A DNA stretch of 64,000 nucleotides from Alphaproteobacteria bacterium (GTDB taxonomy: Bacteria; Pseudomonadota; Alphaproteobacteria; JAAXGF01): NCBI GenBank assembly GCA_963555825.3, contig CAUVXB020000002.1, forward strand, positions 64,001 to 128,000. The letters run 5' to 3'. How positions within the stretch are numbered: position 1 is the first letter of the stretch; every line of letters starts with the position of its first letter. The position numbers and the translations under genes were made by a program. Positions 7,333 through 51,685 of this stretch are shown piece after piece. The notes beneath the pieces are model-generated. The model was not told the origin of the DNA, ran no database searches, and was given only the letters and a program-made list of their open reading frames with translations.

Positions 7333-7635
7333 TCAGAACGGATCACTGCCTTCTTCCGACACCATGGCCCTGGCGGCCTCGGCAACCTTCCTTCCCGGCA
7401 ACACGCCCTTGGTCAGAAACGTCCGCAGACTGCGCTCCGTGATATCGATGCCGCCCGATTTCAACACCTCATGCATCTGAGCCACCGTAACCCCCTTGGC
7501 CTGTTGCTCGACCAGCCGCTTCCGCAAACGGTCCAGCACATCCGTCAGGCTCAGCTTCGGCGGCACAAGTTTCGCCAATTCCCCATCTATGGCATCGAAG
7601 TCGATATCCGCTTCGTTGAAGCGTTTCGCCGGCAT
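7333..7635 (-). CDS. Small putative relaxosome-accessory or stability DNA-binding protein
   Basis: 100 aa, divergent from the relaxase, with a helical HTH-like segment (GVTVAQMHEVLKSGGIDITERSLRTFL) and GGAG RBS. Function is inferred from position. Confidence 0.55.
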   Translation of the reverse strand: MPAKRFNEADIDFDAIDGELAKLVPPKLSLTDVLDRLRKRLVEQQAKGVTVAQMHEVLKSGGIDITERSLRTFLTKGVLPGRKVAEAARAMVSEEGSDPF

Positions 7636-7639
7636 CGTC

Positions 7640-8037
7640 CATCTCCCCGCTGTTTCCAGAATTCGCAATCAGGCCCGGATTCTGCCATTGGCCCGACAGC
7701 CGGTCAATTCCGCCATTCGACGGCCATTTCAAGTGTGCCGCCCCGTTCCAAGGCAGGGCCAAATTCCCCTTGATCTCCGATCATGCAGTCTATATCCTCT
7801 CGCGGAAACATCAGAGAGAGTATAAGCCTTCTCACACCTCTGCACCATTGGTGCTTTGATCTCGATAAATGTAGTTAACTTTCCCCTGATTTGTAAAGAT
7901 CGCACGGCCATTTCGTTAAACCTCTGTAAAATACAGGAATTCCCAAGGCTGGAATCATGAGATACAACAGTCATATTCCGGCTGTACTCCGGCCAGGTTG
8001 TATCCCTATCCGGCAACGTCGTTACCGGGCTGGCGTC
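7640..8037. other. Candidate oriT / divergent promoter region
   Basis: AT-rich intergenic region between a small gene and the relaxase, the usual oriT position. No nic site was identified. Confidence 0.45.
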
Positions 8038-11000
8038 ATGGTAGCCACTCTGGCCCAGGCCGCATCGGCCGCGTATTACCTGGAGAGCCAGCGCTCCTTT
8101 CGTCATCCCAATGAGTACTACACAGCGGGTGAAGAACCGGATGGCGTCTGGTTCAATCCGAAGGGCCTGTTCGGTCTTGCCGACGGCGGCAAGGTCGACA
8201 GCAGCGACTTCCACCGGCTGTATAACGGCTTCGCACCGAACACCGGAGGCAAGCTCACACAAAACGCGGGCAGCGAGCGGCGCTCGGCGGGTCTCGACAT
8301 GACCTTCAGCGCCGACAAGAGCGTCTCGGCCTTGTGGGCCGTCGCCGATCCGGAACTGCGTTCGGAGATCGAGCGGGCGCATAACGATGCGGCTCGGGTA
8401 GCGCTGGAGGAAACAGTGCTGAGGCATTGCGCCTATACCCGTATCCGTAACCGGGACGGCGAGATCGAGGTGCTGCCCGCCGATATATCAGCGGCGATGT
8501 TCCAGCATGGAACCAGCCGGGACAACGACCCGCAGCTGCATACCCACTGCGTGATCTTCAATGCCGCCCGGACACACCGGGACGGCAAGTACCGGGCGCT
8601 GCATCAACACCCGGTCTACACCTGGATGAAGGCGGCGGGGGCGGTCTACCGCAATACGCTCGCCTGGAGCCTGCAAGAACGCCTCGGCATCCGCATGGAA
8701 CAGTACGGCAAGGATGGAGAGTTCACGCGCATCGCAGGCATACCCGAGGACCTGATCGGACACTGGTCGAAGCGCCGGGCGGCGATTATCGAAGCGGCCC
8801 GGGAGATGGGCTTTACGGTCGAGGGCAACGCGCCGCGGGCAGCGGCGGCGAACAAGATCACACGGGCCGGCAAGTCGCCGGATAACGACCCGGAGATCCG
8901 GCACGCGCGCTGGCGCGGCGAAGCGGACGGCTTTATCGAACGCGAGGCGCTGATCGCCTCGCTTCTTGGGTAAGTCGGAAGAGATTACCCAAGAGCAGAT
9001 CCGGGCTCTAACAGAGGTGCTGGAAGAACTGCCGTACCGTCTTACCCGAGAGGAAGCGGTATTCCGCCTGCCGGATATCGTGGAGCGGGTGGGCAATGCT
9101 ACCGCAGGGCTGTTGAACCATGAGGCGGTAGCAACAAGCATCGAACGTGTGCTTCTAAGCCCGGAGGTCGTGCGCCTGACCCGCCCGCCACGGGCGGCCG
9201 AGGGCCGGGCCGATATGGCGCACACCAGGCTCTATTCAACCCGTCACAACCTCCAAATGGAGCTTGAAGTCCGTGACATGGCGGCCGGAATGGCCGCAGA
9301 TACGGGACATTCCTTGTCCGCCCAGGCAATCGAGAACAAGGTGACGGGGCTTCTGGCGGCGGGTTATCCGTTGAGCGAAGAACAGATCACGGCAATACGG
9401 ACGGTCACGTCTTCCGGGGGCCGGGTCGCCATCATCGAAGGAGCAGCGGGCTCAGGCAAGACCACGACGCTGCGGCCCATCGCCGATCTCTACCGCGAAC
9501 ACGGACAGAGCATCATCGCCACGGCCGTGGCTTGGCGCACCGCCGTGGCGCTGGGTAACGATGTCGATGCGCGGCCGTTCTGCGTCGACAAGCTGCTGCG
9601 CCTTGCCGCGCGGGGCGGTATCGAGATCGATGGAGACACCACCATCATCGTCGACGAGGCGGGGATGCTGTCGACCCGCCAGGCGCATCATATTCTCCAA
9701 CTCTCAGAACGCCATGGGGCGAAGATCGTCTTCGCGGGCGACACGCAGCAGCAGCAACCGGTGGAAGCGGGACCGGGGTTGAGGTTGGTGCGCGACGCTG
9801 TGGGCAGCGTTAGGGTTGACAGAATCCGCCGCCAGAAGGCCGACCTGGAAGATATTCTGGTCCATGTCCATGGGGAGAATCCGGAGGCTGCGCGGCTCCG
9901 TACGGGGATGATGGGGGAGCAGGAACGCACCCGCATTGTTGCTGAATACGAGGCGATGGAGGATAAGCCTGTATTCACACCGTGGCAGGTGGCGGCATCG
10001 GAAGCGCTGCGCGATGGCGACGCGGCATCGGCCATAGCGGCTCACCACGCCGGGCCGGTTCCATATCGGGTACGACGAAGAAAAGACGTTGACCGGTCTG
10101 GTCGATGACTGGGACCGCTACCAGCGGGAACATCCCGACAAATCCAGCGTGGTGCTGGCGCGCACACGAGCCGAAGTGCGGGCGCTGTCGTACCTGATGC
10201 GGGAGCGTCGTTTCGCCGCCCTGCCGGATGGGGAACGGCCCGATACGGACCGGGTGACGGTGATCGTAAGCCGGGGGACGGAAGACGAGCGAACAACCTC
10301 TCCACTGGAGATCGTGCGCGGCGACCGGCTGCGCATTGGCGCCACTCACTGGGAGAAGCAGCTGTTCAACGGCACCGTGGTCACGGTCGACGACTTCAAG
10401 GTTCAAAGAGGCGAGGCCGGTACGGAGCCGGGTGTTCTGATATCGGCGCGCACCGAGGACGGACGAAAGGTCATTTTCCGTCACGATGAGATCCGCGACT
10501 GGTACGGCAATATCCGCCTCGATCACGGCTATGCGCTCACCATCACATCAGCCCAGGGGTTGACCGTGGACCGGACGTTCCTGCTGGCCGATGCACGGCC
10601 GGCACGTGAGACGATCTATCCCGCCGCGACACGCCATCGCGAGGGGCTCGACATCTACGTCAACCGGGCGCCGCTCGTTCTCGATATCGCCGACAGGCGA
10701 GCGGACAACGACCGGGAAATTGCGGTGACGGACACCGAGATCCGGGCGTATCTGGCCGAACGCTGGTCGCGCTCGCAGCCGAAGGAGGCGGCGCTCGACT
10801 ACATGGCCAATGGTATATGGGAGGACCGCCGTGAGAATGTCCGGGAGGACAGAAGCCGATCCTCCGGCGAAACCCAGGGCGGGGCCGGTGATATCCGTGC
10901 CGCAGCCAACGACAACGCGCTGGCCCGCATCGCGCGGGATATCCGGCGTACCGCCTTCGGCTGGCGCCATGCCCAGGCAGTCTCCACCTTCGCCGCTGGC

Positions 11001-12218
11001 CGCGCGGAAATTCTGGCGGCATACGACGATCTGCGCGAGCGCACCCGCACGCAAGGCGATACCGTGGCGCTTGGGCCTGCTTACCAGGAGACGCTCACCC
11101 GTCACTCGGCACTGCTCAAACAGGCCGCGGCCTTCCGCGCCCGGCCGGACGACTTCGCCTCCCTGCTGGCCCAGCGCGGCGGCATCGGGCGCAAGGACCT
11201 CGACGCCTTCGAGGAACTCCATGCCCGCGCACGTCGGCACCGGCGAGCGGCCACGATGCGGCACGTGCATCGGATCAAGCGGGAGGCGGAACAACAGGGG
11301 GTTGAGCCGGAGATGCGGCAGGGAGAAACCGCGTCCGTCACACCAGCCGAGCGCATCCAACCGGTCCGGCCGCGCCACGACCGCACGCAATCCCGGGCTC
11401 ATCCCGAAACGGCGAACACACCACCCGTTGCTGCGGCCGTAAGAGACGCGGAACCCGTAAAGCCGTACTGGTATGCGCCTTACATGGCATTGCGCCAGGA
11501 CTGGAACACCTTCATCGAAGGCGCCCGGCAAGCCGGTATCCTTATATTTTACGCCAAGGGGTATGCGGACATGATCCCGCGCATTCGGGCGCTGGCGGAG
11601 AACCCGGATGTCCCGGCCGTAACACGGGCGCCCATGATGCAGGTTCTGGAGAATCACCAGCGTTACCTCTCGACGCGTAAACATATCGACGATTACCTGG
11701 ACCAGGTGGACCGGCATATAGAAGAACACGACTCCATGGAAAGCCTGGCCGAAGAGCTCGACATGAAAGTGGCCGAGATTTCGGATTATCCTGACTGGCG
11801 CCGGGAGAACGACCACCTGACGACGGCGGGCGAGGCCATCCTCTCGGACATGGAGACCCACGGTCCCCATCTCGATCACATCCTGATCGGCGAGACACGC
11901 ATGAAATGGGCGCTCTTGAACATGAGCCGCGCCATCCGCCGCGACGACGAGGCCATCAGCGAGGAAGCCATCGCGGCCGAAAAGCTGCTTGCCCAACCGG
12001 AAACGTCCGAGGAGCGGGAGCAGCGGGCCGAACTGGAGGCTCTCAAATTCCGTCGGCTCCAGTCGGCTGTGGACGATGCAGCCACACAAGAGGAGCGCGA
12101 GGCGGCGCAAAAGGAATTCGACGACTATGTCGAGCGCCACTCCGGAAAGTACGATTCGCCCAGCGAAGAGGAGCACGAGGGCCGCTCAATATCCAGGAGC
12201 TGGAGCATCCGCCTGTAA
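8038..12218 (+). CDS. trwC: MOB-F (TrwC/TraI-like) relaxase-helicase, split by apparent frameshifts near 8966 and 10046
   Basis: N-terminal YY...YY, DMTFSADKSVS, HGTSRDNDPQLHTH; helicase motifs GAAGSGKTT, VDEAGM, GDTQQ, HGYALTITSAQGLT. Spread over ORFs ending at 8973, 10108 and 12218. Confidence 0.88.
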
Positions 12219-12537: not shown

Positions 12538-12986
12538 TGGACCCTGCTGACGAAAGTGGAGACGTCCTGCGATAGGATTTTGATCGCAGGAGGTGCACAT
12601 GTCGAAGCAGAATGGGAACAAGGGCCGGCGGTTTGATCGGGCCTTCAAGGAAGAAGCCGTCCGTCTTTTACAGCCGAGCGGGCGCAGGCAGCGGCAGATA
12701 GCAGGAGATCTTGGGATCAGCGTCAGCGCGCTCGGCCGCTGGGTCACAGAATTGCGTGAGGAGGATTTGCTTTCCGGTCCGCATGAGGATGCAGCGAAGG
12801 AGATTACCCGCCTACGCCGAGAGCGTGATCTGGCCCGTCAGGAACGTGATCTGCTAAAAAAAGCGCTGGCCTTCTTCGCCAGGGAAAGTCGATGAGGTTC
12901 CGGTTCATCGACGCGGAGAGGGCCGGGTTGGCGATGCCGATATTCCGCCTGTGCAGACTGCTGCAGGTCAGCGTCTCAGGCTTCTA
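12538..12986 (+). mobile_element. IS3-family element, left part (IRL, orfA, start of orfB)
   Basis: IRL tggaccctgctgacgaaagtggagacg at 12538 pairs with IRR at 54066-54098. 12771-12986 matches 51716-51931. Confidence 0.88.
12599..12895 (+). CDS. IS3-family transposase OrfA
   Basis: RRFDRAFKEEAVRL, HTH IAGDLGISVSALGRW, ending LLKKALAFFARE with an A7G frameshift window. Confidence 0.88.
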   Translation: MSKQNGNKGRRFDRAFKEEAVRLLQPSGRRQRQIAGDLGISVSALGRWVTELREEDLLSGPHEDAAKEITRLRRERDLARQERDLLKKALAFFARESR

Positions 12987-13565
12987 TCCCCGTGCTCGAG
13001 GTGACCGGGCCGGACCCAGCCAGCCGAAGAGCCAAGGGCAAGGACGACGCCCTGGATGCGATCTCCGCGGCCGAGGCGGCGCGCACAAGACGCCGGGTCC
13101 AGGTGGCCAAAGACCGTTCCGGCACCGTGGAAGCCCTGCGGGTGCTGCGAACAACGCGAAAGACGGCAATCAAGTGCCGCCGCGCGGCCCTGCAGCAACT
13201 CCACAACACCATCGTTGCCGCACCGGAGGAAGTGCGTGACCAGGTCCGCAACCTCACCCGCATGCAGCGCCTGCGTACCTGTGCGGCCTGGAGGCCGGAC
13301 ACGGTCGGCTATCGAGACCCGGTGGTCGCGACCAAGCTCTCCCTGAAGTCCCTCGCCCGCAGAATCCTCGACATCAACGACGAGATCGCTGAACTCGACC
13401 GGTTCATCGTCCCCTTGGTCGAGGAGCTCGCCCCCAGTCTGCTTGAGCTCGAAGGCGTGGGCACCGAGAACGCAGGCGCAGTAATGGTCGCCGTTGGGGA
13501 TAACCCGGATCGGCTCCGCTCCGAGGCGAGCTTCGCCATGATGTGCGGCGTCTGCCCGATCCCCG
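12985..13565 (+). pseudogene. Internal fragment of IS110 transposase
   Basis: Matches ~52955-53535 of the complete IS110 copy. Truncated on the right by IS256. Confidence 0.9.
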
Positions 13566-15014
13566 GGGATGTCCCGGTCGATGTTGAAAAGTTGAGGTAG
13601 GTGTCGCTCTCCTGGAGCCGTTAGGCTCCGGGTGCTGCAAACCCAAAAGGGAGAACGACACCATGGGAAAGAATATCCGTAGTTCCAGCCGCCCGAAAGC
13701 CCTTGCCCCCTCGATTCCTATGCCGCCGCTGGCGGACGCGATGGACGCAGTCCATCTCAGCGTGGATCGGTTTTGTCTTCTGGCCGGGGTCGAGGCCTTG
13801 GCCGAGATGATGGAGGAGGACGCCACGACCGTGTGCGGGGCCCGACATCGCCGCCATGGGGACCGTCGAGGTTATCGCTGGGGCAGGACACATAGCGAGA
13901 TCGGCTACCACGGCGGCAAAGTGAAGGTGGCCCGGCCACGGGTTCGTGACCGGGCGGGCAAAGAGGTGAGCTTGGAGAGCTGGCAGGTGCTGCGCGACGG
14001 CAACCTGTTGCTCGAGTGGGCGCTCAACCTGATGGTGCTGAACGTGTCGACCCGCAAGTACCACCGCGCGGTCCGTCTGCCCGAGGGCGACCTGGCGAAA
14101 GCGCGTGGCGACGGCACCTCGAAGTCGGCCGTTTCCCGGCGCTTTGTGGCGCTGTCGCGCAAGAAGATGAAGGCCTGGCTCGCCTCGGACCTCTCGGAGC
14201 TCGACCTGCTGGTCATCCAGATCGACGGTCTGCATGTCGGCGACCATGTCTTGGTGGCGGCGATCGGCGTCGATGGCAACGGCGACAAGCATGTCCTGGC
14301 CGTGGTCGAGGGGGCGACGGAGAACACTGTCGTCGTCCAGGCCTTGCTCGACAATCTCCTCGCCAGGGGGCTCGATCCGACGCTGCCCCGGCTGTTCATC
14401 GTCGATGGCGCGAAGGCGCTCAGCAAAGCGATCCGCAACACCTTCGGTGTGGCCGCCGCCATCCAGCGCTGCCAGGTCCACAAGGGCCGTAACATCATCG
14501 AGCGCCTGCCCCAACATTTGCACGCGAGCGTCAAGAAGGCGCTCCGTCAGGCCTGGGACCAGGACGACGCAAACAAGGCCGAGCGGCTCTTGCGCAACCT
14601 GGTCCGGCGTCTGGAGCATGAGGAACCGGGCGTCTCGGGCAGCATCCTGGAGGGGCTGGACGAGATCCTCACCGTCATCCGCCTCGGCCTGCCGCACGAA
14701 CTCCGGCGCTCGCTCGCCTGCACCAACATCGTCGAGAACGCGCTCGGCACGGTGCGCCAGGTCACCCGCAACGTCAAACGCTGGAGACACGCCGAGATGG
14801 CGCTCAGATGGACCGCCGCCGGCCTGCTGGAGGCCCAGAAAACCTTCCGTCGCCTCAAGGCCTATCGCCAGCTGCCCATCCTCCGAAATGCTCTCCAGGA
14901 ACACTTGAGAAAGGCTCAGGCCGACAGTGCCATTGAAACCATCATGAAGGCAGCATAGCATCATCAACCAGCGACGCCTGCCCCACGAATTTCAACAGAG
15001 ATAGGGACATCGCC
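13565..15014 (+). mobile_element. IS256-family insertion sequence
   Basis: Imperfect ~25-bp IRs ggggatgtcccggtcgatgttgaaa and (reverse complement) ggcgatgtccctatctctgttgaaa. No matching target duplication. Confidence 0.88.
13663..14958 (+). CDS. IS256-family (mutator-type) transposase
   Basis: VSTRKY, SKSAVSR, IQIDG, IVDGAKAL, QRCQVHK and TNIVE motifs. Confidence 0.93.
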   Translation: MGKNIRSSSRPKALAPSIPMPPLADAMDAVHLSVDRFCLLAGVEALAEMMEEDATTVCGARHRRHGDRRGYRWGRTHSEIGYHGGKVKVARPRVRDRAGKEVSLESWQVLRDGNLLLEWALNLMVLNVSTRKYHRAVRLPEGDLAKARGDGTSKSAVSRRFVALSRKKMKAWLASDLSELDLLVIQIDGLHVGDHVLVAAIGVDGNGDKHVLAVVEGATENTVVVQALLDNLLARGLDPTLPRLFIVDGAKALSKAIRNTFGVAAAIQRCQVHKGRNIIERLPQHLHASVKKALRQAWDQDDANKAERLLRNLVRRLEHEEPGVSGSILEGLDEILTVIRLGLPHELRRSLACTNIVENALGTVRQVTRNVKRWRHAEMALRWTAAGLLEAQKTFRRLKAYRQLPILRNALQEHLRKAQADSAIETIMKAA

Positions 15015-15589
15015 GGCAGTTCTAGCCAAGACGCTCAGCCGGCCATGGCTGGCAGTTTGACATTAATCGAACGGTCGGCGTGATGTCGGCGCCAAGGCCA
15101 GCGGCGATGCGATGTCCCGTCCGAAACCAGTGGCGCTCTCCCCGGGCAGCGCTCGCCGCACTCGCGTCCCCACCGGTGCGGACGCGAGTGCACGGGCTGC
15201 CGCGGAGACTGCCGGCGGCATGGCCGGCACGAGACGGCCCGCGGTTGTGCCTGCGCCGCTGTACGCGATGCCGGACACGACTCGTTCGTTCCTGAAGCTC
15301 ACGGTGCGCGCCGATCCGTGCAGTCCCGCCGGCATGTCGCCGATCGGGACCACCCACAGAGGCCATGCCTCGGCTGCTTCGCGTCGGCACCATCGCGAGG
15401 GTGTCGAATCACCGCTTAAACACCTGTCTGATTTTCCGGGGCCACCTCAGTCCGCGTCTTAATGCGGCATGGAGCAGACCGGCCGAGGAACGGAAGTCAC
15501 GCGCCGGGCGAAGCCCTGGGACGCGGTGGTTATGTTCAGGGCGATCGTTTATTGCGCGCTTTACAAATCTCTCGGACAACAGTGGTGAG

Positions 15590-15822
15590 GTAACGGAAAT
15601 GGCCAGTCTCTGCGCCGCATCGAACACGAAGGCGCGGACAGCGTCGGGGTCGCCGAGCAAGGCGTCCGTGGCTTCAAGTTCCTGGTGGACGTCGGCGTCC
15701 AGTGTGGGCGGCGCCTTCGCCGAGCGGCCACGGACTTGGCGCTCGCGTTCCTTGACTTTCCTGGCTGGTTCCAATTCTGGCCGCTCGGATGGCGACGGGT
15801 AGTTGCAAGCGACCACGGTCAC
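15590..15822 (-). pseudogene. Probable fragment of an SNF2-like helicase C-terminal region
   Basis: VHQELEATDALLGDPDAVRAFVFDAAQRL resembles, from recall only, segments of defence-island SNF2 helicases. Short and degenerate. Confidence 0.3.
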
Positions 15823-17088
15823 GCATTCTGCGTCGAGTCCTTGGCCGCTGCAGCGTCTACAACTTCAAAGAGCTTTGTGAGCGTTTTTTCACCGACTCGT
15901 GCCCTTCGCATCAACTGCTTCAACTCTTCCATCAGTGCGGGATCGGCAAGATCCTCGATTGCCACGTCCTTGTATACGACGGTGTGGTGAGGATCGCCAA
16001 AGGCCACGGCTTTGTCGAACAGCTGATCGGCCTCGCGTTCCAAGTCGGTTCTGTATGACTGTTCGTCCATGTCATCACGCATGCGCAAATGCGCTGGTGG
16101 CTGTTCCTTCCAAAGATCGACAAATTCGGTGACGAATTGTTCGCGAAAAGTCTTCCTACTCTCATCGATTGTCCCTTGAAGAACGCAGTGATATGCCTTG
16201 ATGATTCCAATCAGACGATCCAACTGCTTGCCCGCTTGTTCCTTGTCTTTTCGCAGAATCACCTTTCCACGCGCCTTCCAGTCATGGAAAAACACGCGCT
16301 CAAGCTGTTGGCGCTCACGTACGATGTACTTCTCGTTCACCATCAACGTCTCGCGACCTGCGCCGAAACCAATCGATATTTCCAACTCGGTCTCAAGATC
16401 GATGGGCATCTTGAGTGTCGAGGAAATACGGGATCGCAAGTCCATGTCCTTAAGCTTTTGAAACTGGGCAGGCAGCTGGATCTTGCGCGAACGAAATGTC
16501 ATTCGTCATCTTCAGCTCAACGAATTGTACTTCGCTCCTGAAGACTCTCAGTTTTCTGCTCAGATCGAAGGGCTGCGGTGGATCCGCGTTCAGGTTCGCG
16601 ACCATTTGATCGACCCGCTCGGATGTCAGTGCGGTCTGCCCGACTTCCGTCTGGGCTCCCGCGAGCGCAGTTGCAAGGGCCAATGTGTCCGCGGCTTCAC
16701 CCTCGATCACAAGTGCGTTCGGCTTCTCGACGCTCGTTGAGCCGGCCTCGACATTGCGTGGTACGGGTGAGTAAACCATGGCCCGATGGTCAGAAACGAT
16801 GACACCGATGCGAACGCCTGGTTGCTCGCGGAGCTCGAACAGCTCCTGGGAGCTGGCTCGGCGGATGTTTTCCAGGGCCTGCATATCACCATAACCCATG
16901 CGATAGACTTCCGGATCGGTGTCGAGAATAACCGTCAACGATTGTGCCGAGAGGGTTCCAATACAGTGTCCAAGCGCCTCGGCGACCGGAGTGGTCAAGC
17001 CGGGGGCGACGATGATCAGGCGGTGTACCGCGGACTGGATCAATTCGATCAGCTTGTCGTCGGTGGCCGTGGTGAATGTACGGTTCAT
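15819..17088 (-). CDS. Hypothetical protein with PLD-like N-terminal fold (apparent frameshift near 16502)
   Basis: LIQSAVHRLIIVAPG, LTVILD and RIGVIVSDHRAMVYSP suggest a PLD-nuclease-like layout without HKD. ORFs ending at 16450 and 15819 join at VELKM/TFRSRK. Lower GC than flanks; GGAG RBS. Confidence 0.6.
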
Positions 17089-17464
17089 TTCATCTTCTCC
17101 TCTCGTCGCCCATTCTCGTCGACTCCGCGCGTGAGGCAGCCAAACGCTGACCATCTGAAGGCCGCGCCTTCTTCTACACCTGCACTCGGCCTGCCACATC
17201 GAAATAAGTGTCTACCGCTTAGCAGCCTGTTGAAAAAGTTGGTGGCGCATCTGGGGTCGGCTCCCACCCTGAAACTCAAACCTGGCGCTGCAACGCGCTG
17301 GCCGGGCTGCTGCTGGAAATCCACGCAAGCGACTCCGCAAATGGCTACCCGAGGCGAGTCGTGGTAAATGTCGCTGCTTCAGGGCGGTGCCCCGCCTGAA
17401 GAACTACCGCATTGGCCCAGCTCTGCCCGGTGGCATTGTTCGATGCGTCGCCGGTGTCTCGCCG

Positions 17465-43445: not shown

Positions 43446-44320
43446 GAGCCGTCTCCGGGCCGCGCTTGGTAGGGCAACGCGCGATCGTCGGAACCCTCGA
43501 TTTGCACGCCGGGCGGGCGCGCGGCGATCCGGCCGATCCGGACATCGCCGGGGAGCGGATCGCCCTCGCGCACGAACCAGACCCGCCGCCCATCGGTGAC
43601 GCCGGCGCGCAGATCGCCCGCCATCCCGAGAATTGAGAACCAGCCATAGCGCGGCGCTGCCGGCGCGGCTTTCGCCGGCTTTTGCGCAGTCGTGGAGGGC
43701 GGCAGCTTTGCGGGGACCGTGTTCAATTGCGGCATGACCGAAGGAACGGTGGCGGCCACCGCCGGGGATCGATTTGCGGCGGCCGGTTCCGCCGGCGCGC
43801 GGAGCGCCCGCAACTGGGCCTCGGTCTCGAATATCCCGGTCACGATCAGCTGGCGCTCATGGCATAGCTTCAGGGTCTCGTGCTCGATCGCCAGGGCGGA
43901 CAGCGCGTCTTGCCTTTCCGCCACACCCGCGAGCAGCCGGGTCAGCAGATCGCGCGGACAGCCCGCGATGACGGATGCAGCCATCGGCGGTATCGGGATG
44001 GCGAAATTCGGGGCGGGTGCGGCTGGAGTCCCGGCTTCTTTGTCCGGGCCTGCCGGTTGCGGTTGCCCGGCCGCCCTGCGGTCCAGCACGCGAAGCAGAC
44101 GGCTGCGGCCCGCGGCATTCGCAGCGCCCGTGGATGGCGCCATTGGCGGGACGGAAAGCCCCGGCTTTGAATTCATCGCGGCGGAACCGGCCGCCGCCGG
44201 CTCGGGTGATTGCGATCCCGGCGCGGGCGGTGAAACCGCGTCCAGCGCGGAGGCACCCGGTGCCGCCACCATCGCCACGAGGCAGGCGCCAAGAGTGCGA
44301 AGATGTGCCGCGGCGGTCAT
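43442..44320 (-). CDS. PilP-like exported pilus biogenesis protein
   Basis: Signal peptide, coiled coil, and C-terminal SILG..LRA..VREGDPLPG..I motif; lies upstream of pilQ. Confidence 0.6.
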   Translation of the reverse strand: MTAAAHLRTLGACLVAMVAAPGASALDAVSPPAPGSQSPEPAAAGSAAMNSKPGLSVPPMAPSTGAANAAGRSRLLRVLDRRAAGQPQPAGPDKEAGTPAAPAPNFAIPIPPMAASVIAGCPRDLLTRLLAGVAERQDALSALAIEHETLKLCHERQLIVTGIFETEAQLRALRAPAEPAAANRSPAVAATVPSVMPQLNTVPAKLPPSTTAQKPAKAAPAAPRYGWFSILGMAGDLRAGVTDGRRVWFVREGDPLPGDVRIGRIAARPPGVQIEGSDDRALPYQARPGDGS

Positions 44321-45539
44321 TCGGGCGTCCACCCGAGATGGGCGGCGAGCGCGCGCCAGGGATAGCTGTTGGCCGCCGCCGCGCCATCGAGGGTCACGAT
44401 CAGTTCGCCGCGCGACCAGCGCCACGCACCGGGCGTCCCGCGACTGCCGTTGCCGTCTCCCAATACCGCGGTAAGAGTTCCGTCCGCCCGGAAGCGGAAG
44501 GCGGAATCCTTGGCCTCCATGAAGGGCAGCGTGACCGGGCCGCTCTGCGCCGCCAGCCAATCGGTCAGCCGCATCGCGGCGTAGCGTTCTCCGGTGGGCA
44601 GCAGCGGCAGCGCGTCGCCGACCCGGAAACGCGGACGCAACGGAAGGCGTTCATAGTGCAGCGCGATCTCCGCGCCGCCCGCCGCCGGCACGAGATGGCC
44701 GGTATCGGCGATGCCGCCGGTACCGCCGCTGCCGTCGAGCAGCCACAACTCGTCGCGGTCCCGGCCGAGCACCAGAACGTGGCGCGCACCGGCATTGTCG
44801 ACCAGCACCCGGCCGTCGTTATCTTCGAGGAAGCGCTTGAGCGCCGCCGCCGGCAGGGTTGCATGGCCCCCCGACGCCGCGATGCCGGTGGCTCCCGGTC
44901 CGCGCAGTTCGGAGCCCGGAAAGCCGCGCAGCGGCGCGTCCGTATCCTGCGCCATCATCTTGTCGAACGCGGTCGAGGTCTGCTTCTCGTTGACCGGCAG
45001 GTCCGCCGGCAACGCCACGTCCGGGCAGGCGTCCTTCATCGCCCGCGGCCAGCTTTCCTGAACCCAGCCGCGCGAAGCCACCGCCCAGACACCGGACGCG
45101 GCTCCCAACGCCTCGTTGTGCAGCACGCCCGTGGCGGGATCGTAAAAGACCGGGGTGTGGCCGCGCCGCTGCCCGGGATCCGGCGCCACGCCCGGCTCGG
45201 TGAAATTGTAGAGCGCGCGGAACTCGCGGGACGGCACCACCCGCCAGCGCGCGGTTCCGGGCGCATAGGCGCCGCCGAGATGGGCGCAGGCGCGAAGCGT
45301 GCCGTCCGGGCCGTGATAATGCGCCCAGACGGTATTGCGGTCTCCAGCGCGCCGCGAGTTCGGCCGCTCCAGGATCCAGACGCGGCCTTCGAGCAGGCCG
45401 GTGAAGAAGCCGGCGGCGTGGGAGCTGTAGTTCGGTGAGGCGGGCGCGGCTTGCGCTGCCGCGTTATCCGCCATGAGAGCGGTCGCCATCATTGCGGCTA
45501 GCGGCCAGCGACAGGGGTTGAATTCCGTGTCATCGTCAT
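44317..45539 (-). CDS. Exported hypothetical protein (apparent frameshift near 45505)
   Basis: AAGGAG RBS and ATGA overlap at 45539; signal peptide ending AAA|Q; ~400-aa body. Confidence 0.6.
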
Positions 45540-47155
45540 GCTCCTTTGGTGGTGTTTGCGCCGGCGGCCATGCGGCCTGGCCGGTTCCGCCCAGCGCGCG
45601 GCGAGACGGCGCACCATGGCGGCATAGATCCCGAACGCGCCGTCCTCGTCGCCCGCGGCGATAGCCGCGATGGCCGCGTCGATGCGGCCGCCGATCCAGT
45701 CCCAGTCCGAATGCCCTTGGGGAATCGCGGCGGCGATGCGGGGCGCGATTCGTAATATTCGGCAACCAGCGCCCGGCGTTTGGGCGTTTTCATCATGTAG
45801 CCGTCGCGGAAACGCCGCAGCGCGGTCAGGGTCGGCCCGCCGTCCGCTTCGATGCCGCGCCGCTCGACAATCGCCGTGGTCAGGAAGCAGTCGCCACCAT
45901 CTCCACCTCCGTCGCCACCACAAGAGTCCTCGTCGGCGCCCAAATCTCCGTCCAGGTCGCAGGAATCGCCGCCCACGCCGCCCGCCCCGCCATCGCCTTC
46001 GCCGCCGCCGCCATCGCCGCCCCAGTCCGGCGGGATCACGGCCCGGCAGCTGTCCGTCTCCAGAATCCAGGGGCCATGGGAGATCCGTACGACGGGCTCC
46101 GCGTCCCACGGGAACTGGGTCGCCCGCCGGGTCGCGGTGCGCCGGTAGTCCTGACTTCCCGTGTAGCCGGACGGGCAGCCATCGGTCATGGCTTCGGTTT
46201 GCGCGGTCTCCGTCACCACCGCCTTCGGCGGCACGGGAACCTTGCCGGTCCAGCAGCTCGTCGAGACGAACTCGGGCGGACCCAGCGTCTCGCCCTCCGC
46301 CGTCACGCTCTTCAGCCGGCGCCAGATCTCGCGGCCTTCCATGCGCCGGTTGTGCGGCGGCCCGGCGTCCCAGTGGCAGACCAGCGTGTAGTTCTCCCAG
46401 GCCGTGTAATCGGCCCGGCATTCGTCGATCAGAAGCTGCCAGGGGCCATGGACCGGATCGCCCACCGGGTTGCCGCGTTCGTCATGGGTTTGGGCGGCCT
46501 CGCGCACACTTGTGCGGCCCTGGCCGTGCTCACCGGCGGCACAATCCTCGACCCGGCGTTCGCGGCTCACGCGCTCGTTGGTGTGGGCGTAGGGATCGCG
46601 CACCGTGCCGGCGAGCGCGGCGCGGCCCGAGGGCAGCGGCCCGCCGAAAGCGGTATCGGACAGGCAGGCGGGGAGCGTCACCGAAGGGCGGCCCGCCGCG
46701 CCCGTGGCCCGGCCTGCCTCCAGCCAGTGCAGCACCGGCGCCTGGCCATTCGCTCCGCCGCCGGCGTAGGCATGGGGCGCTGCCTGGACCGCGCGGTGAT
46801 CGCGGCCGACGCCCTTGAGGCGCTCCGGGCGCGAGATAGACCAGCAGCGTGTCTTCGCAATAACGCGCCCGCACGCCACGCAGCGTCCAATCGGCAAGCC
46901 AGCCGCTGCCGGCCGGCGGGACCGCGCCGCTCCAGCCCGAGACGCTTGCGCCATCCGGATCGGGTGAGCCGGCGGAGCCCTCGAGAATATAGCTCTCCAG
47001 GCGGCGCCAGGCCGTGGTCACCGCGCGGGCGTGGGCCAGCGCTTCCTGACGGTAGACACGTTCGTTCGCGGATTGCTGCGCACCGCCGGGGCGGCACTGA
47101 GAAGCGCGCACAGGCTGACCCCGGCCAGCATGGTGGCGCGGAATGTTCTACTCAT
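45536..47155 (-). CDS. Exported Cys-rich protein with C-terminal CFI-box-like domain (several apparent frameshifts)
   Basis: GGAGG RBS, signal peptide, Cys-rich repeats, G/D-rich linker, then GGDCFLTTA...LRRFRD...VAEYY. Confidence 0.6.
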
Positions 47156-48468
47156 GGGTTGCCTCCTCGTTTGGAAACTGTTCGGAATTGCTTGCCGGGG
47201 CGCGGGCCGGCTCACGGAATCCCGCACGCGTCATCGCCTCCGGCGCCACGGGGCGGCCATGCAGGCGCCATCCCCCGTCAGCACCGAGATCCAGCGCGGT
47301 GATCTCGAGACCAGCGAGGCCGCCGGAAACGCGGAATTGATCGGCAAGGCGCGGCAACGGGCCGGGATGGCCGATCCGGACGGTCCAGCCGCCTTGTGGG
47401 CCGCGTGCGTAGTCGATCCGCGCCCCACGAAGGCCAAGTTCACGGTCGACAGCACGGCGAAACGCCAGGAATAGGGGCGGCGCGGTCTCGACGATGCGCA
47501 GCACGGGGGCCAGCGGGAGGACCGCCCAGGCGCTCGCATCGACCACGGACGCGGCGTACCAGCGCGACAGGTGTTGCTCGGCGAGTTGCCGGTGCAGGGG
47601 CTCGGCGTGGCCGGGCGCCAGCCGCCAGCGCGCCAGCATGACCGCGCGGCCCGCCAGTTCGGGGCGGAGCGCGGCAAGTTCGGGATCGGAAAAGCGGGCG
47701 GCGCAGGTAAGGCTCTCGATCCGCCAGGCCGGCAGCCAGGGCGGATAATCGATCAATGCCCGCCGGCAGGCTTCTATCAGGGCGGCGCTATCGACCGCGA
47801 CCGCGAGATCCGGCTCGGCCGGCGGCGCGATGGCAGTCACGGGTTCCGGCCCGCCGCCGATCCAATCCAGGAGCGCATCGCGCTGCAGCCAGGCGGCCGA
47901 CCCGCCGGCAAAAATAGCGGGACAACAGCAGGGCCAGCGCCAGGTGGGCGCGCCCAAGTCTCGTAAACGGCGCGCGGCGGAGCACATTCTCCGGCGCGGC
48001 GGCGAGACTCGAAACATCGAGTTCAGTGACTTCGCGGTCCGCGCCGCCGGCGAGCAGGCCGGGCGTCGCGTAAAGGTCCCAGCCCAGCGTCCGCGCGCGG
48101 GTGAAAGCTTCGACGGCGGCATCCCGGTTGCTGAATACTTCGTCGCCATCGGCAAGCACGGCGCCGTCGCGAACTTTTGTCAGCGCGAAACGCCCGCTGC
48201 CGCCGCTATCGCCCGGAGCCGCATCGCCCGCGACCAGAGCCATCCAGAACTCGCTCTCGATCGAATCGACCAACGCCAACGCCAGCGCCGGAAGCCCCTC
48301 CGTTGCATCGTCTTCGGTGCCGCCGGCATAGCCGGTCTGACCCGCCCGGTGGACGCACCAGGGCCGCGCGAAGCGGCGCGCGGCGCGTGCCGTGGCGGCC
48401 GGACCGGACCGCTCGAGCCAGTAGAGCCCGGCCGCGAAGGGACGTCCGTTAATGAGAATGGTGCTCAA
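47148..48468 (-). CDS. PilO-like pilus accessory protein (apparent frameshift near 47910)
   Basis: INGRPFAAGLYW N-terminus, central TM helix, and position directly after the secretin gene. Confidence 0.7.
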
Positions 48469-50150
48469 AACGCCATCCCCCGGACTTCCGCGATGCCCAG
48501 CGGCTCGCCGATGTCCGCGGTTATCAGAAGCACCTGTTCGATACGCGCCGTGGACGCCTTGCGCCCGCCGTCGGGCAGCGGCAGATCGGCGTCGAAGGTG
48601 CCGGAACGCTGGGCGCTTGCGCTGCGGTCGGAAAATCCGGTCACCATCAGCGTCTCGCCACGGCCGATCTTCTGCGTCACCTGAATGGCGCGGCTGGCAT
48701 AGGCCGGGAGCTGGATCGTCTGATTGTTCGAAGTGAACGCAGTGAAAGACGGGCGGTCGCGCAGGCTCGCGAACAGCCGCACCAGCACCTCGCCGGGACC
48801 GGTGATGCGGGGCAGGTAGCTCACCGCGAAGCCTGACGAGACCGTGCCCGGCACGAGTTCGGTCTGGGCGATGCCATCGCCCGCCGTGGTGCGCAGTTCG
48901 CGCAGATAGGCTTCCTGGAAGAGCTCGAAGAACTGCGCCGGCTTGCCGTTCAGCGACGGAATATCGGCCGACAGCACCCGCGAGACCGCGCCCGCGCTGT
49001 TCAATGCCCGCACCGTCGCCGACAGCGTATCGCCGCTCTCGCCGCCGGGAGAGGGCTTGATCAGCGCCACCGCGTTGGACCCCACGCTGACGCGCAGCGC
49101 CTCGCCGAGCAGCCGGGCGATCGAGAAGCTGAGGCCGAGATCGTAGTCCGCCTCGCGCTCGACCCGCACCGAATAGACGTGCACCGACAGGGTGACGGGC
49201 CGCAGCACCTCGCGGTTGAGATAGCCGAGGTACGCGCGCGCCCGGGCGATATCGCGGGGCGTGCCGCTCACCGTCACCGAGGCGCTCGACGGCGCAACCG
49301 ACAGCCGGGTTCCCGGATCGAGCAGCCCTTTTAACTGGCCTTCGATCTCGGGCCACGGGTCGTAATCCGTCTCGGTCGATATGGTCTGGCTGGTGAGGTT
49401 GCCCCCGCCGCTGCCCTCGCCATCACCGCCCGCGGCGCTGTCCTGGGTCGAGGACGACACGGTGTAGCGCTGTTTGCCGGCCAGCGCGTGAATCTGAAAG
49501 ATCGCGGAACGGCGGCGCACGATCTCGATGGCCTGCCGGTCCGCATCGTAACGCCACTCGTAACCGGAGGGTTCAGTCCACGAATCAAGCAGTGCGTCGA
49601 GCGGGCCGGTCCAGATGCCCCCGTCCGGCGACAGCCCATCACGGACAGCCTCGCCAAATACATTCACGGACGGATCGCCGTCCGTGCCGTTGCCCGTCCG
49701 GCGCGGGGGGCCGGTAAACCGCACGGCAAGGCCGGTTGCCGCCTCGATACGTCCCGCCAGCGTTGCCGGCGCGCCGATACCCGCAAGCGGCAGGGTCACT
49801 GCGTCCGCGCGGCGGTAGCGCGCCGGCAAATCCGCGCGCGGGTCGGGCTCGATGGGTGTCAATCCAACATAGGGACGGCGCTCTATAAGGCGCACCGTGG
49901 ACAGGCGCGGCCCGGCTTGCGGGGCTCCCGGAGCCGAAGCCCCCGATCCCCTGAGGGCCGAGACCTGCCGCGCGACATCTCCGGTTTCCATCCGCGCGCG
50001 CTCGACCTCCGCCAGGCCGCAGCCGGAAAGCGTGGCGAGCATTATTGCGAAACAACCGGATCGGGTTGAATGGGTCCGTAATCCGGGGTTCCGGAGCGCA
50101 CAAAGGCGGTGAACGGCCATTTGCCTTGCTTCCCGTGCAAGGCGCTTCAT
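48465..50150 (-). CDS. pilN: PilN/BfpB-like lipoprotein secretin
   Basis: Lipobox LSGC, DPWPEIE, VTVSGTP, LNGKPA, PGTVSSGF, TIQLP and GETLMVTGF motifs. Confidence 0.88.
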   Translation of the reverse strand: MKRLAREARQMAVHRLCALRNPGLRTHSTRSGCFAIMLATLSGCGLAEVERARMETGDVARQVSALRGSGASAPGAPQAGPRLSTVRLIERRPYVGLTPIEPDPRADLPARYRRADAVTLPLAGIGAPATLAGRIEAATGLAVRFTGPPRRTGNGTDGDPSVNVFGEAVRDGLSPDGGIWTGPLDALLDSWTEPSGYEWRYDADRQAIEIVRRRSAIFQIHALAGKQRYTVSSSTQDSAAGGDGEGSGGGNLTSQTISTETDYDPWPEIEGQLKGLLDPGTRLSVAPSSASVTVSGTPRDIARARAYLGYLNREVLRPVTLSVHVYSVRVEREADYDLGLSFSIARLLGEALRVSVGSNAVALIKPSPGGESGDTLSATVRALNSAGAVSRVLSADIPSLNGKPAQFFELFQEAYLRELRTTAGDGIAQTELVPGTVSSGFAVSYLPRITGPGEVLVRLFASLRDRPSFTAFTSNNQTIQLPAYASRAIQVTQKIGRGETLMVTGFSDRSASAQRSGTFDADLPLPDGGRKASTARIEQVLLITADIGEPLGIAEVRGMAF

Positions 50151-50227: not shown

Positions 50228-50902
50228 TCACGCCGTCCGCCGGGCCGAACCGCCCACGTCGGAGGTCGAGCTGTAGCGGCGTTCCGCCGCCCACGCCTCG
50301 ACATCGGCGCGGGCGTAGCGCACCCGGTTGCCGAACTTGTGAAACTTGGGACCCCCGCCGCTGACCCGGTAGCGGTCCAGCGTGCGTGGGCTCAGGCCCA
50401 GAAAGGCCGCCAACTCGCGCGTGCCCATGTAAATCGCGTCGTCGTCCATCCCGGCCTCCCATTGCTTGGCGCAGTCGACGGGAACGGCCGGAACGTCGTC
50501 CTCGACCGCCGCGCGTACCGCCAGGCGCTCGGCCTCGCTCGACTGGCTTTCCATCCAGGCGCTCACCCGGTCGCAGGTATCGAGGCGCGGCGAGGCGCCC
50601 TGGCGCAGCCGCCTGACGAAGCACGGATCCCCCACCGCCTCCTGGCCAAGCAGAGAAGCCTTGGTGCGGGTTATGGCGATGAACGCCTCGACCTCGCGCC
50701 GGAAAGCCGGGCCGAACGGTTCCTCGCCCATGTAGGCGAGTATCCGGTCGGCGCTGCCGAGCCTGATCACGCGGCCCGCGGCGATGCGCGCCACCAACGA
50801 GGGGTTGCCGGCGGTTTCCAGGCCGAACCGGCCGCGGCTCATGCCGCGGCGGGCGAGGAAACCATCGATGCTGTTCTTGAGAATTGTGTTCCGGCTTGTC
50901 AT
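50228..50902 (-). CDS. Regulator with two Cro-like repeats plus AlpA/excisionase-type HTH
   Basis: Internal repeat (FG.ETAGNPSLVARIAAGR / LG.EAVGDPCFVRRLRQGA), then TRELAAFLGLSPRTLDRYR..GPKF..VRY...VEAW. Confidence 0.8.
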   Translation of the reverse strand: MTSRNTILKNSIDGFLARRGMSRGRFGLETAGNPSLVARIAAGRVIRLGSADRILAYMGEEPFGPAFRREVEAFIAITRTKASLLGQEAVGDPCFVRRLRQGASPRLDTCDRVSAWMESQSSEAERLAVRAAVEDDVPAVPVDCAKQWEAGMDDDAIYMGTRELAAFLGLSPRTLDRYRVSGGGPKFHKFGNRVRYARADVEAWAAERRYSSTSDVGGSARRTA

Positions 50903-50904
50903 GA

Positions 50905-50965
50905 ACCAGAACCTAAGAGGAACATTTATCGTTGACAATAGGTTTCAATAGGATATAAGCTACAA
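50905..50965. promoter_or_regulatory. Overlapping divergent sigma70-like promoters and operator repeats
   Basis: Plus strand TTGACA(50932)-16-TATAAG; minus strand TTGTCA-17-TAGGTT; CAATAGG repeated at 50936 and 50946. Confidence 0.6.
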
Positions 50966-50968
50966 AAC

Positions 50969-51685
50969 ATGACAGACATGCGCGGAGCTACGATGGAACG
51001 CGACCCGGTACGGCAAAAACTCAAAGATTTGTTGTGGAAACGCGGCCTCACCATGGCCGCCGCCTCGCTTGCGCTGGGCAGAAACCGGGCCTATCTGCAC
51101 CAGTATCTTGAGCGCGGCCTGCCCAAGGTGCTGAACTACCCCGACAGCGTGACCCTTGGCGTACTGCTCGATTGCGACCCGGCCGAGCTGCGCCACGATA
51201 CGGTGCCGAAACGCAAGCCGGCGAACAGGACGCGGCGCATCCCCCCGGCCGGCATTCCCGGAGCCCCTCTATCCGCGATCTCCGAGATGGAAGTCGAAGC
51301 CGCCGCCGGTCCAGGAGCTTTGAACGAGGAGTTCGCCACCGAGAAGGCGCGCTGGTATCTGCCCGAGGGCATGATCCGCCACGAGGCCGATGCGAACCCC
51401 GAGGGCCTGCGCATCCTGCGCCTACGCGGCAACTCGATGGAGCCCGAGATGAGCGCGGGCGACCGGCTCGTCGTCGACACCGCCCGGCGTATCCCCGCAA
51501 CCGGCGAGATGGCCGTGCTGTGGGACGGTAATGGCCTCGTGGTCAAGCGGATCGAGACGGTGCGTGAGCCCGGGCCGCCCCGATTGCGTCTGATCTCCAC
51601 CAACCCGGACTATGCGCCCTATACCTGCCTTGCCCAGGAGGCGCACATCGTCGGCAGGGTGCTGTGGTCCATCAGGCGGGTGTGA
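50969..51685 (+). CDS. CI/LexA-like repressor with S24 autopeptidase domain
   Basis: N-terminal HTH (ASLALGRNRAYLHQY), AG cleavage site (AAAGPG), catalytic GNSMEP and VVKRI. Confidence 0.9.
   Translation: MTDMRGATMERDPVRQKLKDLLWKRGLTMAAASLALGRNRAYLHQYLERGLPKVLNYPDSVTLGVLLDCDPAELRHDTVPKRKPANRTRRIPPAGIPGAPLSAISEMEVEAAAGPGALNEEFATEKARWYLPEGMIRHEADANPEGLRILRLRGNSMEPEMSAGDRLVVDTARRIPATGEMAVLWDGNGLVVKRIETVREPGPPRLRLISTNPDYAPYTCLAQEAHIVGRVLWSIRRV

Follow-up and report, generated by a model that had tools for sequence, protein, structure and literature searches.

How a mating apparatus of the Dot/Icm type came to be encoded in one gene train with a VirD4/TraG-type coupling protein, and beside a TrwC-type relaxase, is the question raised by a locus of the alphaproteobacterial genome G000 (two contigs; 6.04 Mb; GC content, 65%; completeness, 99.3%). 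The stretch analyzed, referred to as the window, comprised 64,000 nucleotides (positions 64001-128000 of contig C2), and its location on this 3.63-Mb contig placed the element on the chromosome. Judging from its genes, the feature at 7333-51685 is very probably the transfer region of an integrated conjugative element, present as a damaged copy, that combines mating-pair formation type I (MPF-I) and a thin pilus with a type IV coupling protein (T4CP) of the VirD4/TraG type and with TrwC. The MPF-I conjugative system is of a known kind; what is new is the replaced coupling and relaxase module. With somewhat less assurance, we regard the element as a member of the first recognizable family of MPF-I integrated elements, in which DotL-DotM were replaced by a VirD4/TraG T4CP and a small membrane partner, accompanied by a MOB-F relaxase, and which is now spreading in multiple copies, with adhesin-like cargo, among families of sponge-symbiont Alphaproteobacteria.

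Gene train and coupling protein

Candidate open reading frames (ORFs) were compared with Pfam (66 ORFs) and NCBIfam (43 ORFs), the models of which were used for MPF typing in place of CONJScan profiles. A co-oriented train on the minus strand extended from approximately 50,938 (HTH_17 gene) to 17,465 (gene for a 252-amino-acid membrane protein), with pilN to the T4CP gene at 18175-50150. An earlier note on this DNA had proposed such a train with largely overlapping start and stop codons, and the profile matches bore out its order and coordinates. Many junctions were of the ATGA type: pilQ/pilR, pilS/next ORF, dotD/dotC, dotC/dotB, icmT/TcpQ-like gene, TcpQ-like gene/dsb-like gene, and ssb/next ORF. 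The genes are given below from the first to the last; one unassigned ORF lies between the genes for PilS and the PilV-like protein, and two small ones precede the A24-peptidase-like ORF.

50228-50938 (-): DNA-binding protein of the HTH_17 type (excisionase/AlpA family), with which the train begins (PF12728, 43.5 bits; 97% identical in the relative G004)
48465-50150 (-): PilN, the lipoprotein that serves as secretin for the type IVb pilus (TIGR02520, 171.6 bits; Pfam Secretin domains)
43442-48460 (-): four pilus-region ORFs with no family match, two of them frameshifted (single frames of 560 and 450 amino acids in G004)
41769-43445 (-): PilQ assembly ATPase (T2SSE; PF00437, 130 bits)
40705-41772 (-): PilR platform protein of the GspF family (T2SSF; PF00482, weak; start placed by the overlap)
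39937-40701 (-): PilS-type type IVb major pilin (PF08805 and Bundlin PF05307)
38031-38816 (-): PilV-like minor pilin, shufflon-protein constant region (Shufflon_N; PF04917, 49 bits; 53 bits for the ORF of G004)
35858-37128 (-): prepilin-peptidase (A24)-like ORF with a TcpQ motif, frameshifted (single 431-amino-acid frame with PF01478 and PF10671 in G004; same frame in G002)
35336-35701 (-): DotD/TraH (PF16816, 83.6 bits; NF033882)
34533-35339 (-): DotC/TraI lipoprotein (PF16932, 193.5 bits)
33313-34536 (-): DotB/TraJ ATPase (TIGR02524, 252 bits; TIGR02525, 191 bits; start from the overlap with the dotC stop)
33028-33300 (-): IcmT/TraK (NF038220, 61.5 bits; cut-off, 40)
32405-33028 (-): TcpQ-domain protein (PF10671, 36 bits)
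31527-32408 (-): DsbG/DsbC-like thiol:disulfide interchange protein (NF008657, 70 bits; start by overlap)
30893-31534 (-): DotI/IcmL/TraM (PF11393, 130 bits; NF038072, 124 bits)
29944-30843 (-): DotH/IcmK/TraN (PF12293, 147 bits)
28782-29957 (-): DotG/TraO, VirB10-like (NF033900, NF033884 and PF03743, all weak)
27845-28141 and 28250-28999 (-): two TraQ/TraR-like small membrane proteins (NF033883, 44.6 and 22.8 bits, below the cut-off; DUF6750)
24709-27831 (-): IcmB/DotO/TraU-type ATPase, the VirB4 homologue of MPF-I, intact with 1040 amino acids (tblastn; weak VirB4 match)
24226-24705 (-): single-stranded DNA-binding protein (SSB; PF00436, 103 bits)
23687-24226 (-): ORF with no family match (start from the ATGA overlap with the ssb stop; conserved in relatives)
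22539-23690 (-): TraW-like ORF (NF033888, 25 bits, below the cut-off; conserved in relatives)
20214-22174 (-): DotA/TraY, split by a frameshift (TIGR04346 matches both halves)
18175-20154 (-): VirD4/TraG-type T4CP, intact with 659 amino acids (PF02534, 131.6 bits; PF12696; PF10412)
17465-18223 (-): conserved bitopic membrane protein of 252 amino acids, directly downstream of the T4CP (no Pfam or NCBIfam family)

The R64 names given to these genes agree with the published R64 naming; in R64 itself, the Dsb-type role is filled by TrbB. The 1040-amino-acid ORF was recognized as a VirB4 homologue of the TraU/IcmB type: a tblastn comparison with plasmids matched 3764 records, including IncI hosts, some annotated as IcmB/DotO, with a best E-value of 1e-138 and best identities of 35-39%. 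For a system to be called MPF-I, no fewer than four genes specific to the type are needed, out of TraI, K, L, M, N, P, Q, R, W and Y (PMC3158045). Five were found above curated cut-offs: TraI/DotC, TraK/IcmT, TraM/DotI, TraN/DotH and TraY/DotA; the TraQ-like and TraW-like matches were below the NCBIfam cut-offs. Furthermore, PilN, PilQ, PilR, PilS, a peptidase-like ORF and PilV occurred in one cluster, as expected of a type IVb pilus. These results indicated that the train is predicted to encode an IncI-like type IV secretion system (T4SS) of the MPF-I (Dot/Icm) class together with a type IVb pilus. The earlier description of this system as minimal was retained in part, several train ORFs with no family match being possible analogues of the missing parts. 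Relaxed Pfam scans (E-values up to 1) of two pilus ORFs, the TraW-like ORF, the T4CP-adjacent ORF, the 111-amino-acid ORF beside the relaxase gene (orf7333, see below) and four cargo ORFs gave nothing usable.

The coupling protein is of the VirD4/TraG type, not of the DotL/TrbC type. Its match to PF02534 extended over residues 171-619 and was accompanied by one to PF12696 (TraG-D_C; 74 bits), which is the VirD4/TraG architecture; in controls, PF02534 gave 17 bits for IcmO/DotL of a Roseomonas plasmid and no match for IncI TrbC. The NF041447 model (TrbC_conju), on the other hand, gave 274 bits for the Roseomonas IcmO/DotL, 1043 bits for IncI TrbC and 413 bits for a Bosea homologue, and did not match the protein in the window, which matched the TraG and VirD4 NCBIfam models below their equivalog cut-offs. 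The best blastp match was the T4CP of a Sphingobium MPF_T/MOBQ plasmid (E-value, 2e-48), followed by VirD4 (5e-16) and TraG (3e-15) of pTiC58; matches with TrwB of R388 (2e-8), TraD of F (0.097) and DotL (0.31) were weaker, and there was none with TrbC. The IncI reference in these comparisons was plasmid pC49-108 (NC_025144.1), standing in for R64, and TraG was represented by that of pTiC58. In a quick maximum-likelihood tree of 20 rows (12 family members and 8 references) with long branches and a careful search left unfinished, DotL/TrbC stood apart (approximate likelihood-ratio test value (aLRT), 100), and the family formed a clade (aLRT, 100) inside the VirD4/TraG group (aLRT, 95), with TrwB/TraD as a neighboring group. 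The VirD4 coupling protein named in the earlier note was thus supported by blastp, by the tree and by PF02534 against the DotL/TrbC controls.

The lack of DotL, DotM and a lytic transglycosylase in the window, also claimed earlier, held, and for DotL and DotM it could be extended to the whole genome: NF041447 (TrbC/DotL) and NF033890 (DotM) had no match across G000 under conditions in which the positive controls matched, a tblastn search of the genome with TrbA, TrbB, TrbC, DotL, a DotM-like protein and partial NikB gave nothing relevant at E<0.01, and no SLT domain was found in the window. Neither a T4CP of the MPF-I clade (DotL/TrbC) nor the R64-type set of NikB with TrbA/TrbC was therefore detected. 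IncI plasmids are not known to carry DotN or IcmS/W either, and hence the absence of these proteins claimed in the earlier note says little. No rci-type tyrosine recombinase was found within 7333-51685 among the ORFs scanned and the matches listed; the earlier claim of its absence held, the only tyrosine recombinases among these matches in the window being a trio at 1465-4650, outside 7333-51685. Of the R64-type PilV shufflon with Rci, the constant region of PilV was present, and the same matches listed for 7333-51685 contained no tyrosine recombinase.

The distribution of coupling proteins among other IcmB lineages was then considered. An even draw of 401 species from the class contained 30 with an IcmB match, counting G000 and G044, a genome flagged as unpublished: four belonged to this family (96-100% identity), and the rest showed 38-43%. 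All five of the tested genomes with IcmB of about 40% identity carried a TrbC/DotL-family gene (375-406 bits), and four of the five had no PF02534-type T4CP. The nearest plasmid homologues of IcmB (35-39%; Methylorubrum, Roseomonas, Bosea, Komagataeibacter and others) likewise adjoined DotL-family T4CPs where examined. Since the outside IcmB lineages carry DotL-type T4CPs, the swap of the coupling protein is specific to this element family. The "swapped DNA-processing module" of the earlier note was upheld as a swap; as the T4CP does not resemble TrwB, the phrase should not be taken to mean that TrwB and TrwC were imported as a pair.

The protein encoded directly downstream of the T4CP was kept in 39 of the 46 related loci described below. 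Its alignment revealed a variable N-terminus, an RRxRRRW motif, one transmembrane helix and a C-terminal domain of 55 amino acids with two invariant Cys residues. A role of this protein in transfer is possible.

Relaxase region and element family

The relaxase gene lies on the other side of a cargo slot, convergent with the train. The features of this region, and the repressor gene at the opposite end, are as follows.

4897-5679 (+): DUF7146 and Toprim (primase-like) protein of the element left arm (PF23639, PF13362; 88-92% identical to the single toprim gene of G004 and G001)
5676-6842 (+): YAcAr (YspA-related SLOG) protein beside the relaxase (PF10686, 82.6 bits; also in G001, G002, G004 and at several loci)
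7333-7668 (-): orf7333, 111 amino acids, divergent from trwC (no Pfam match at E<0.01)
7669-8073 (no strand): orf7333-trwC intergenic region with a small palindrome, GCACCA-T-TGGTGC (four-copy alignment; inverted repeats)
8074-12218 (+): MOB-F (TrwC-type) relaxase-helicase, broken into three frames (PF08751, 242 bits; NF041492, 225 bits; cut-off, 100)
12593-14958 (+): insertion sequence (IS) debris: IS3-type HTH ORF, IS110 fragment and Mutator-family transposase (Pfam)
15022-17367 (no strand): lower-GC block of four ORFs with no Pfam or NCBIfam match, cargo between trwC and the T4CP end
50969-51685 (+): S24 (LexA/CI-type) self-cleaving repressor, divergent from the train (PF00717, 57 bits)

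MOB-F relaxases are defined by two tyrosine pairs and an HxDxxxHxH motif. In an alignment with R388 TrwC and F TraI, the protein encoded here showed conserved tyrosine pairs (two; YY..YY) and HxDxxxHTH, and its middle and C-terminal parts matched AAA_30 and the TraA_Ti helicase; identity was 28% to TrwC of R388 and at most 39% to any plasmid MobF. The claim of a TrwC-type relaxase-helicase was borne out by PF08751, NF041492 and these catalytic motifs, with the correction that the gene is in three frames (7957-8973, 8966-10108 and 10089-12218). Relaxase and helicase formed a single polypeptide in the relatives and in five other copies of the same genome, but not in the window copy, where two frameshifts part the relaxase, the half with Walker A and the C-terminal half from one another. 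A caveat of the earlier note, that IS remnants (12593-14958) separate the relaxase from the train, also proved correct. The adjacent orf7333 was kept beside trwC in relatives and in other copies in its own genome, and its position makes it a candidate relaxosome accessory protein. The intergenic region, the palindrome of which was also present in G002 with other letters, is a candidate origin of transfer (oriT) or operator, and the oriT is probably located there. Thus, a relaxase, a T4CP, a VirB4-type ATPase and MPF genes, i.e. the gene set of an integrative conjugative element (ICE), occurred at one chromosomal locus.

Relatives were sought by a T4CP scan of species-representative genomes, which gave 46 related loci, all in uncultured Alphaproteobacteria-type metagenome-assembled genomes except for two short contigs binned elsewhere. 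In 30 of these, the T4CP was full-length and no less than 9 kb of upstream DNA was available; dotA was directly upstream of the T4CP gene in 22 of the 30, and icmB was within 10 kb in 18. The identities of T4CP and IcmB to the window proteins were correlated (r = 0.98; 19 non-independent loci), decreasing from 92%/96% to 52%/57%. Three relatives were fetched in full. G004 was complete, with 89-96% DNA identity along the whole element and all examined genes in frame; G002 was complete, with approximately 50-80% protein identity and TrwC only 1.2 kb from the T4CP end; in G001, dotC to pilR was deleted. They shared one order: ssb, Toprim, YAcAr, orf7333, TrwC (rightward), the cargo slot, the leftward set from the membrane ORF, T4CP and dotA to pilN and HTH_17, and the rightward S24 repressor. 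TrwC had the same place and orientation in all three. The association of MPF-I with a VirD4-type T4CP and with TrwC is a stable trait of the family rather than an accident of this locus. This supported the earlier proposal of an element family: the same gene order was sought and found in other genomes, and the relatives carry TrwC.

In the sample of 401 species, the family T4CP was present in only four, spread over three GTDB families (f1, f7 and f156) with 91-92% identity; protein copies of the element were 91-97% identical across three GTDB families, and the family T4CP was missing from two further genera of the GTDB family to which the window belongs. Such near-identical copies in so few species point to recent horizontal transfer, and the family appears to be mobile on this genomic pattern. 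Public sequencing runs contained 0.32-0.68 of the sampled window words and none more than 0.68, with five labelled sponge metagenome among them; DNA nearly identical to that of the window is present in sponge metagenome runs. Seawater runs contained next to no window words, which is not evidence of absence. The hosts of the family are uncultured Alphaproteobacteria associated with sponges.

G000 and G004 were similar in DNA (blastn) from C2:43,646 to window position 51,697, and the element is roughly 72 kb in length, part of which is due to IS and recombinase-trio insertions. Its left arm contains umuDC, a ParB-like protein, DUF2201 and a Strawberry-notch-type helicase.

Several loci (L010, L013-L017, L020 and L043) had the T4CP (66-77% identity) and the downstream membrane ORF without dotA/icmB upstream; in L013 and L043, TrwC was on the other side of the T4CP. 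These MPF-less loci are probably mobilizable deletion derivatives of the family.

Damage to the window copy and rival readings

The earlier interpretation passed over the damage to this copy: trwC, dotA and pilus genes carry frameshifts. Frameshifts were called from DNA insertions and deletions relative to G004 together with stop-to-stop frames, since tblastn against G002 was too noisy (alternative-frame matches in GC-rich DNA). The changes were +1 near 8965 and -2 near 10052 in trwC; +2 near 21092 in dotA, which is split into 21011-22174 (N part) and 20214-21080 (C part); +1 near 36738 in the A24-peptidase/TcpQ ORF; and +1 near 46824 and +1 near 47922 in the pilus-region ORFs, corresponding to the 560- and 450-amino-acid frames of G004, respectively. 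G001 and G002 agreed with the G004 frames wherever the region was present, and dotA formed one open frame of 803-812 amino acids in G004, as it did in two additional copies carried by G000. With two frameshifts in trwC and one in each of dotA and three pilus genes, the window copy, damaged and evidently decaying by its sequence, is probably not self-transmissible. The same contig carries five more trwC copies (open frames of 1427-1869 amino acids), two more dotA copies (open frames of 803 and 812 amino acids) and two more full-length T4CPs. Complementation of trwC and dotA by these intact paralogues is conceivable in principle, whereas the pilus genes could not be rescued in this way: they and dotB through dotI had no second genomic copy. 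In a side observation, the Strawberry-notch-type helicase gene (AAA_34 and Helicase_C_4; C2:58420-61595) consisted of two overlapping ORFs in G000, which may be a further frameshift.

It might be argued that the window copy is intact and self-transmissible, and that its six frameshifts are consensus errors of the assembly. The extra base of the window was missing from contigs of public runs in four of four cases at 47922, in three of four at 46825 (one only partly) and in two of four at 36739 (one only partly); these were the three sites read there, to the exclusion of trwC and dotA, and the contigs may represent related strains or copies. In-frame alleles are common in nature, as seen in these contigs, and the best run held only 0.68 of the window words, so that the source reads were not among the runs compared. 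However, some runs showed no deletion relative to the window at 36739 and 46825, the sites are not long homopolymers, and the other trwC and dotA copies of the same assembly are in frame. Furthermore, rpoB and rpoC (frames of 1369 and 1409 amino acids) are intact, indicating that the assembly is not riddled with such errors, as are the 1040-amino-acid IcmB and a neighboring gene of more than 2007 codons, and the locus carries IS and recombinase insertions, which are typical of decay. Assembly error as the explanation of all six is therefore unlikely.

The locus could, alternatively, consist of two side-by-side elements, namely a relaxase-less Dot/Icm-type machine and a mobilizable T4CP-TrwC element. 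IS debris and cargo do lie between trwC and the train, and the T4CP (with the downstream ORF) and TrwC occurred without MPF genes in 8 of the 30 full-length loci, which, however, are more simply explained as deletion derivatives. The T4CP gene is the last of the train, 59 nucleotides after dotA, a junction kept in 22 of the 30 loci down to 52% T4CP identity; IcmB identity co-varied tightly with that of the T4CP, and the genome contained no other T4CP or relaxase type that could serve the MPF-I genes, making a composite of two elements a rather remote prospect. It is still less credible, to the point of being highly improbable, that the machine secretes protein effectors into a host instead of mediating conjugation: the bacteria are host-associated, and adhesin-like Calx-beta genes occur in or beside the element, but the element has genes for a relaxase-helicase, a primase-like protein and a T4CP along with two ssb genes, partial copies are multiple per genome, and near-identical copies across bacterial families in only 4 of 401 species are the pattern of a mobile element, not of a fixed organelle for host interaction.

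Several points nevertheless weigh against a single integrated conjugative element. The gene dotA was missing upstream in 8 of the 30 full-length T4CP loci, only 7 of the 29 loci for which both flanks were available had TrwC no more than 10 kb from the T4CP, and TrwC with T4CP occurred without MPF genes (e.g. L013 and L043), so that the two parts can separate. Among the scanned ORFs of the region shared by G000 and G004, there was no integrase, serine recombinase or DDE gene, with no separate search for serine recombinases; PF00589 was not among the matches listed for C4:640-740 kb of G004; neither G000 nor G004 had a tRNA at the borders or between them; and there were no direct repeats of at least 11 nucleotides at the similarity borders. 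The term "integrated" consequently refers to the chromosomal location, its sole basis. Several train ORFs were without a family match, functions were assigned by homology throughout, and the T4CP tree, given its search and references, is supporting evidence only. Finally, as none of the four runs had the extra base at 47922, this frameshift could be an assembly error.

Under the preferred reading of one conjugative element, the S24 LexA/CI-type repressor would control the operon that opens with the HTH_17 protein, with derepression of the SOS type. This operon would build a type IVb thin pilus (PilN, Q, R, S, V and the peptidase) and an MPF-I channel (DotC, D, H, G and I; DotB; IcmT; IcmB; TraQ/R-like; TraW-like; DotA), and its last genes would supply the T4CP and the conserved small membrane protein. 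TrwC, convergent with the operon across the cargo slot, would nick oriT, probably in the orf7333-trwC intergenic region, and the T4CP would hand the relaxase-DNA complex to the Dot/Icm-type channel without DotL/DotM. A function in establishment within the recipient is probable for SSB, the Toprim protein and other genes of the left arm.

Known systems, borders and cargo

Among known systems, the element resembles IncI1 plasmids R64/ColIb-P9 (represented by pC49-108, NC_025144.1) in IcmB/TraU, TraI, TraJ, TraK, TraM, TraN, TraO, TraQ-like, TraW-like and TraY proteins, and in its Dsb-type protein and type IVb thin pilus (PilN, Q, R, S, U and V in IncI). It differs in that IncI has TrbC (DotL family), TrbA (DotM family) and the MOB-P relaxase NikB, none of which was detectable in G000; in an IcmB less than 40% identical to any plasmid homologue; in its chromosomal location; and in that no rci-type recombinase was seen inside the element and no lytic transglycosylase was found. 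The alphaproteobacterial MPF_I plasmids (Roseomonas mucosa pSKB0092-2, Bosea pBSY19_1 and the Methylorubrum extorquens AM1 megaplasmid) carry the nearest plasmid IcmB and are of the same class, whereas the T4CPs of the Roseomonas and Bosea plasmids belong to the IcmO/DotL family (274 and 413 bits to NF041447, as above); the Roseomonas plasmid additionally has a DotM-like protein and a lytic transglycosylase, and is MOBP by MOB-suite. Legionella/Coxiella Dot/Icm systems share the core homologues DotA, B, C, D, G, H and I, IcmB and IcmT, but the Legionella coupling complex (DotL, M, N, Y and Z with IcmS/W; PMC12857230) has no counterpart here, and the element carries a relaxase and resembles a DNA-transfer system. 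An Icm/Dot system of Xanthomonas also has DotL (PMC10432156).

The relaxase resembles those of the R388 TrwC-TrwB and F TraI-TraD pairs, with MOB-F motifs in the N-domain followed by a RecD-like helicase; however, the T4CP of the element is outside the TrwB/TraD clade, and the mating apparatus is MPF-I, not MPF-T or MPF-F. PAPI-1, pKLC102 and ICEclc are integrated conjugative elements with a T4SS and a type IVb R64-like thin pilus (PMC3548315), but are set apart by their descriptions, which give MPF-G and MOB-H (PMC3158045) in place of MPF-I and MOB-F. MPF-I is scarce in plasmids and scarcer in chromosomes, many MOB/MPF combinations being known (PMC3158045); its T4CPs, linked to the DotL type, are nearly monophyletic, and thin pili accompany only some MPF-I systems (PMC3548315); its profiles are based on R64 (PMC4027160); and MPF-I ICEs are described as extremely rare, none having been delimited (PMC5587801). 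Our literature search gave no account of MPF-I with a VirD4/TraG-type T4CP and MOB-F, a co-occurrence that could exist unnoticed in tables, nor of this element family in sponge symbionts, and the combination of MPF-I, VirD4/TraG T4CP and TrwC was not found in the plasmid collection.

The docking of T4CPs onto T4SS channels is still poorly understood (PMC12857230). If the proposed pairing is true, the family is a natural experiment showing that a Dot/Icm-type channel can accept a substrate receptor of the type IVA style. It is also a testable case of which channel parts suffice for docking and of the freedom with which modules for DNA processing and mating-pair formation are recombined. Among sponge symbionts, the family points to an active vehicle of gene exchange present in multiple copies, the window copy illustrating the decay of such elements in place.

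At the borders, the left end (an ATPase-inhibitor zeta-like gene with umuD-umuC) was present twice, approximately 10 kb apart (C2:32891-35184 and C2:43646-47234), with an IS inside the second. Directly past the right border was an IS cluster (51837-57798) of IS3 fragments, an IS110-family transposase, an IS21 pair (Mu-transposase-like and IstB) and an extra IstB fragment; G004 carried different IS elements at the corresponding border. The recombinase trio at 1465-4650 (-) was inserted between two Toprim genes and was not in the G004 element. Further trios occurred beside other trwC/orf7333 copies (C2:601578-603959, 2326091-2329931 and 3600917-3603298), and one trio was flanked by inverted orf7333-trwC copies (599-609 kb). 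From this recurrence, the trios may have a preferred target or may travel together with the relaxase module.

The GC content of the cargo block was 58.5% in the 16-18 kb bin, compared with about 70% in the train. The block (15022-17367) was duplicated with 99-100% identity at C2:2771671-2774012, beside a second, partial T4CP-dotA-traW copy. In G004, the slot between trwC and the T4CP held Calx-beta genes, a P450, a LuxR-type regulator and a DsbA/ScsC pair (C4:670725-679448). To the right of the IS cluster in the window was a giant gene for a Calx-beta/SWM-repeat surface protein (57970-63999 (-); more than 2007 amino acids; GC content at third codon positions, 0.94), which showed 66-69% DNA identity over parts to the Calx-beta cargo genes of G004.

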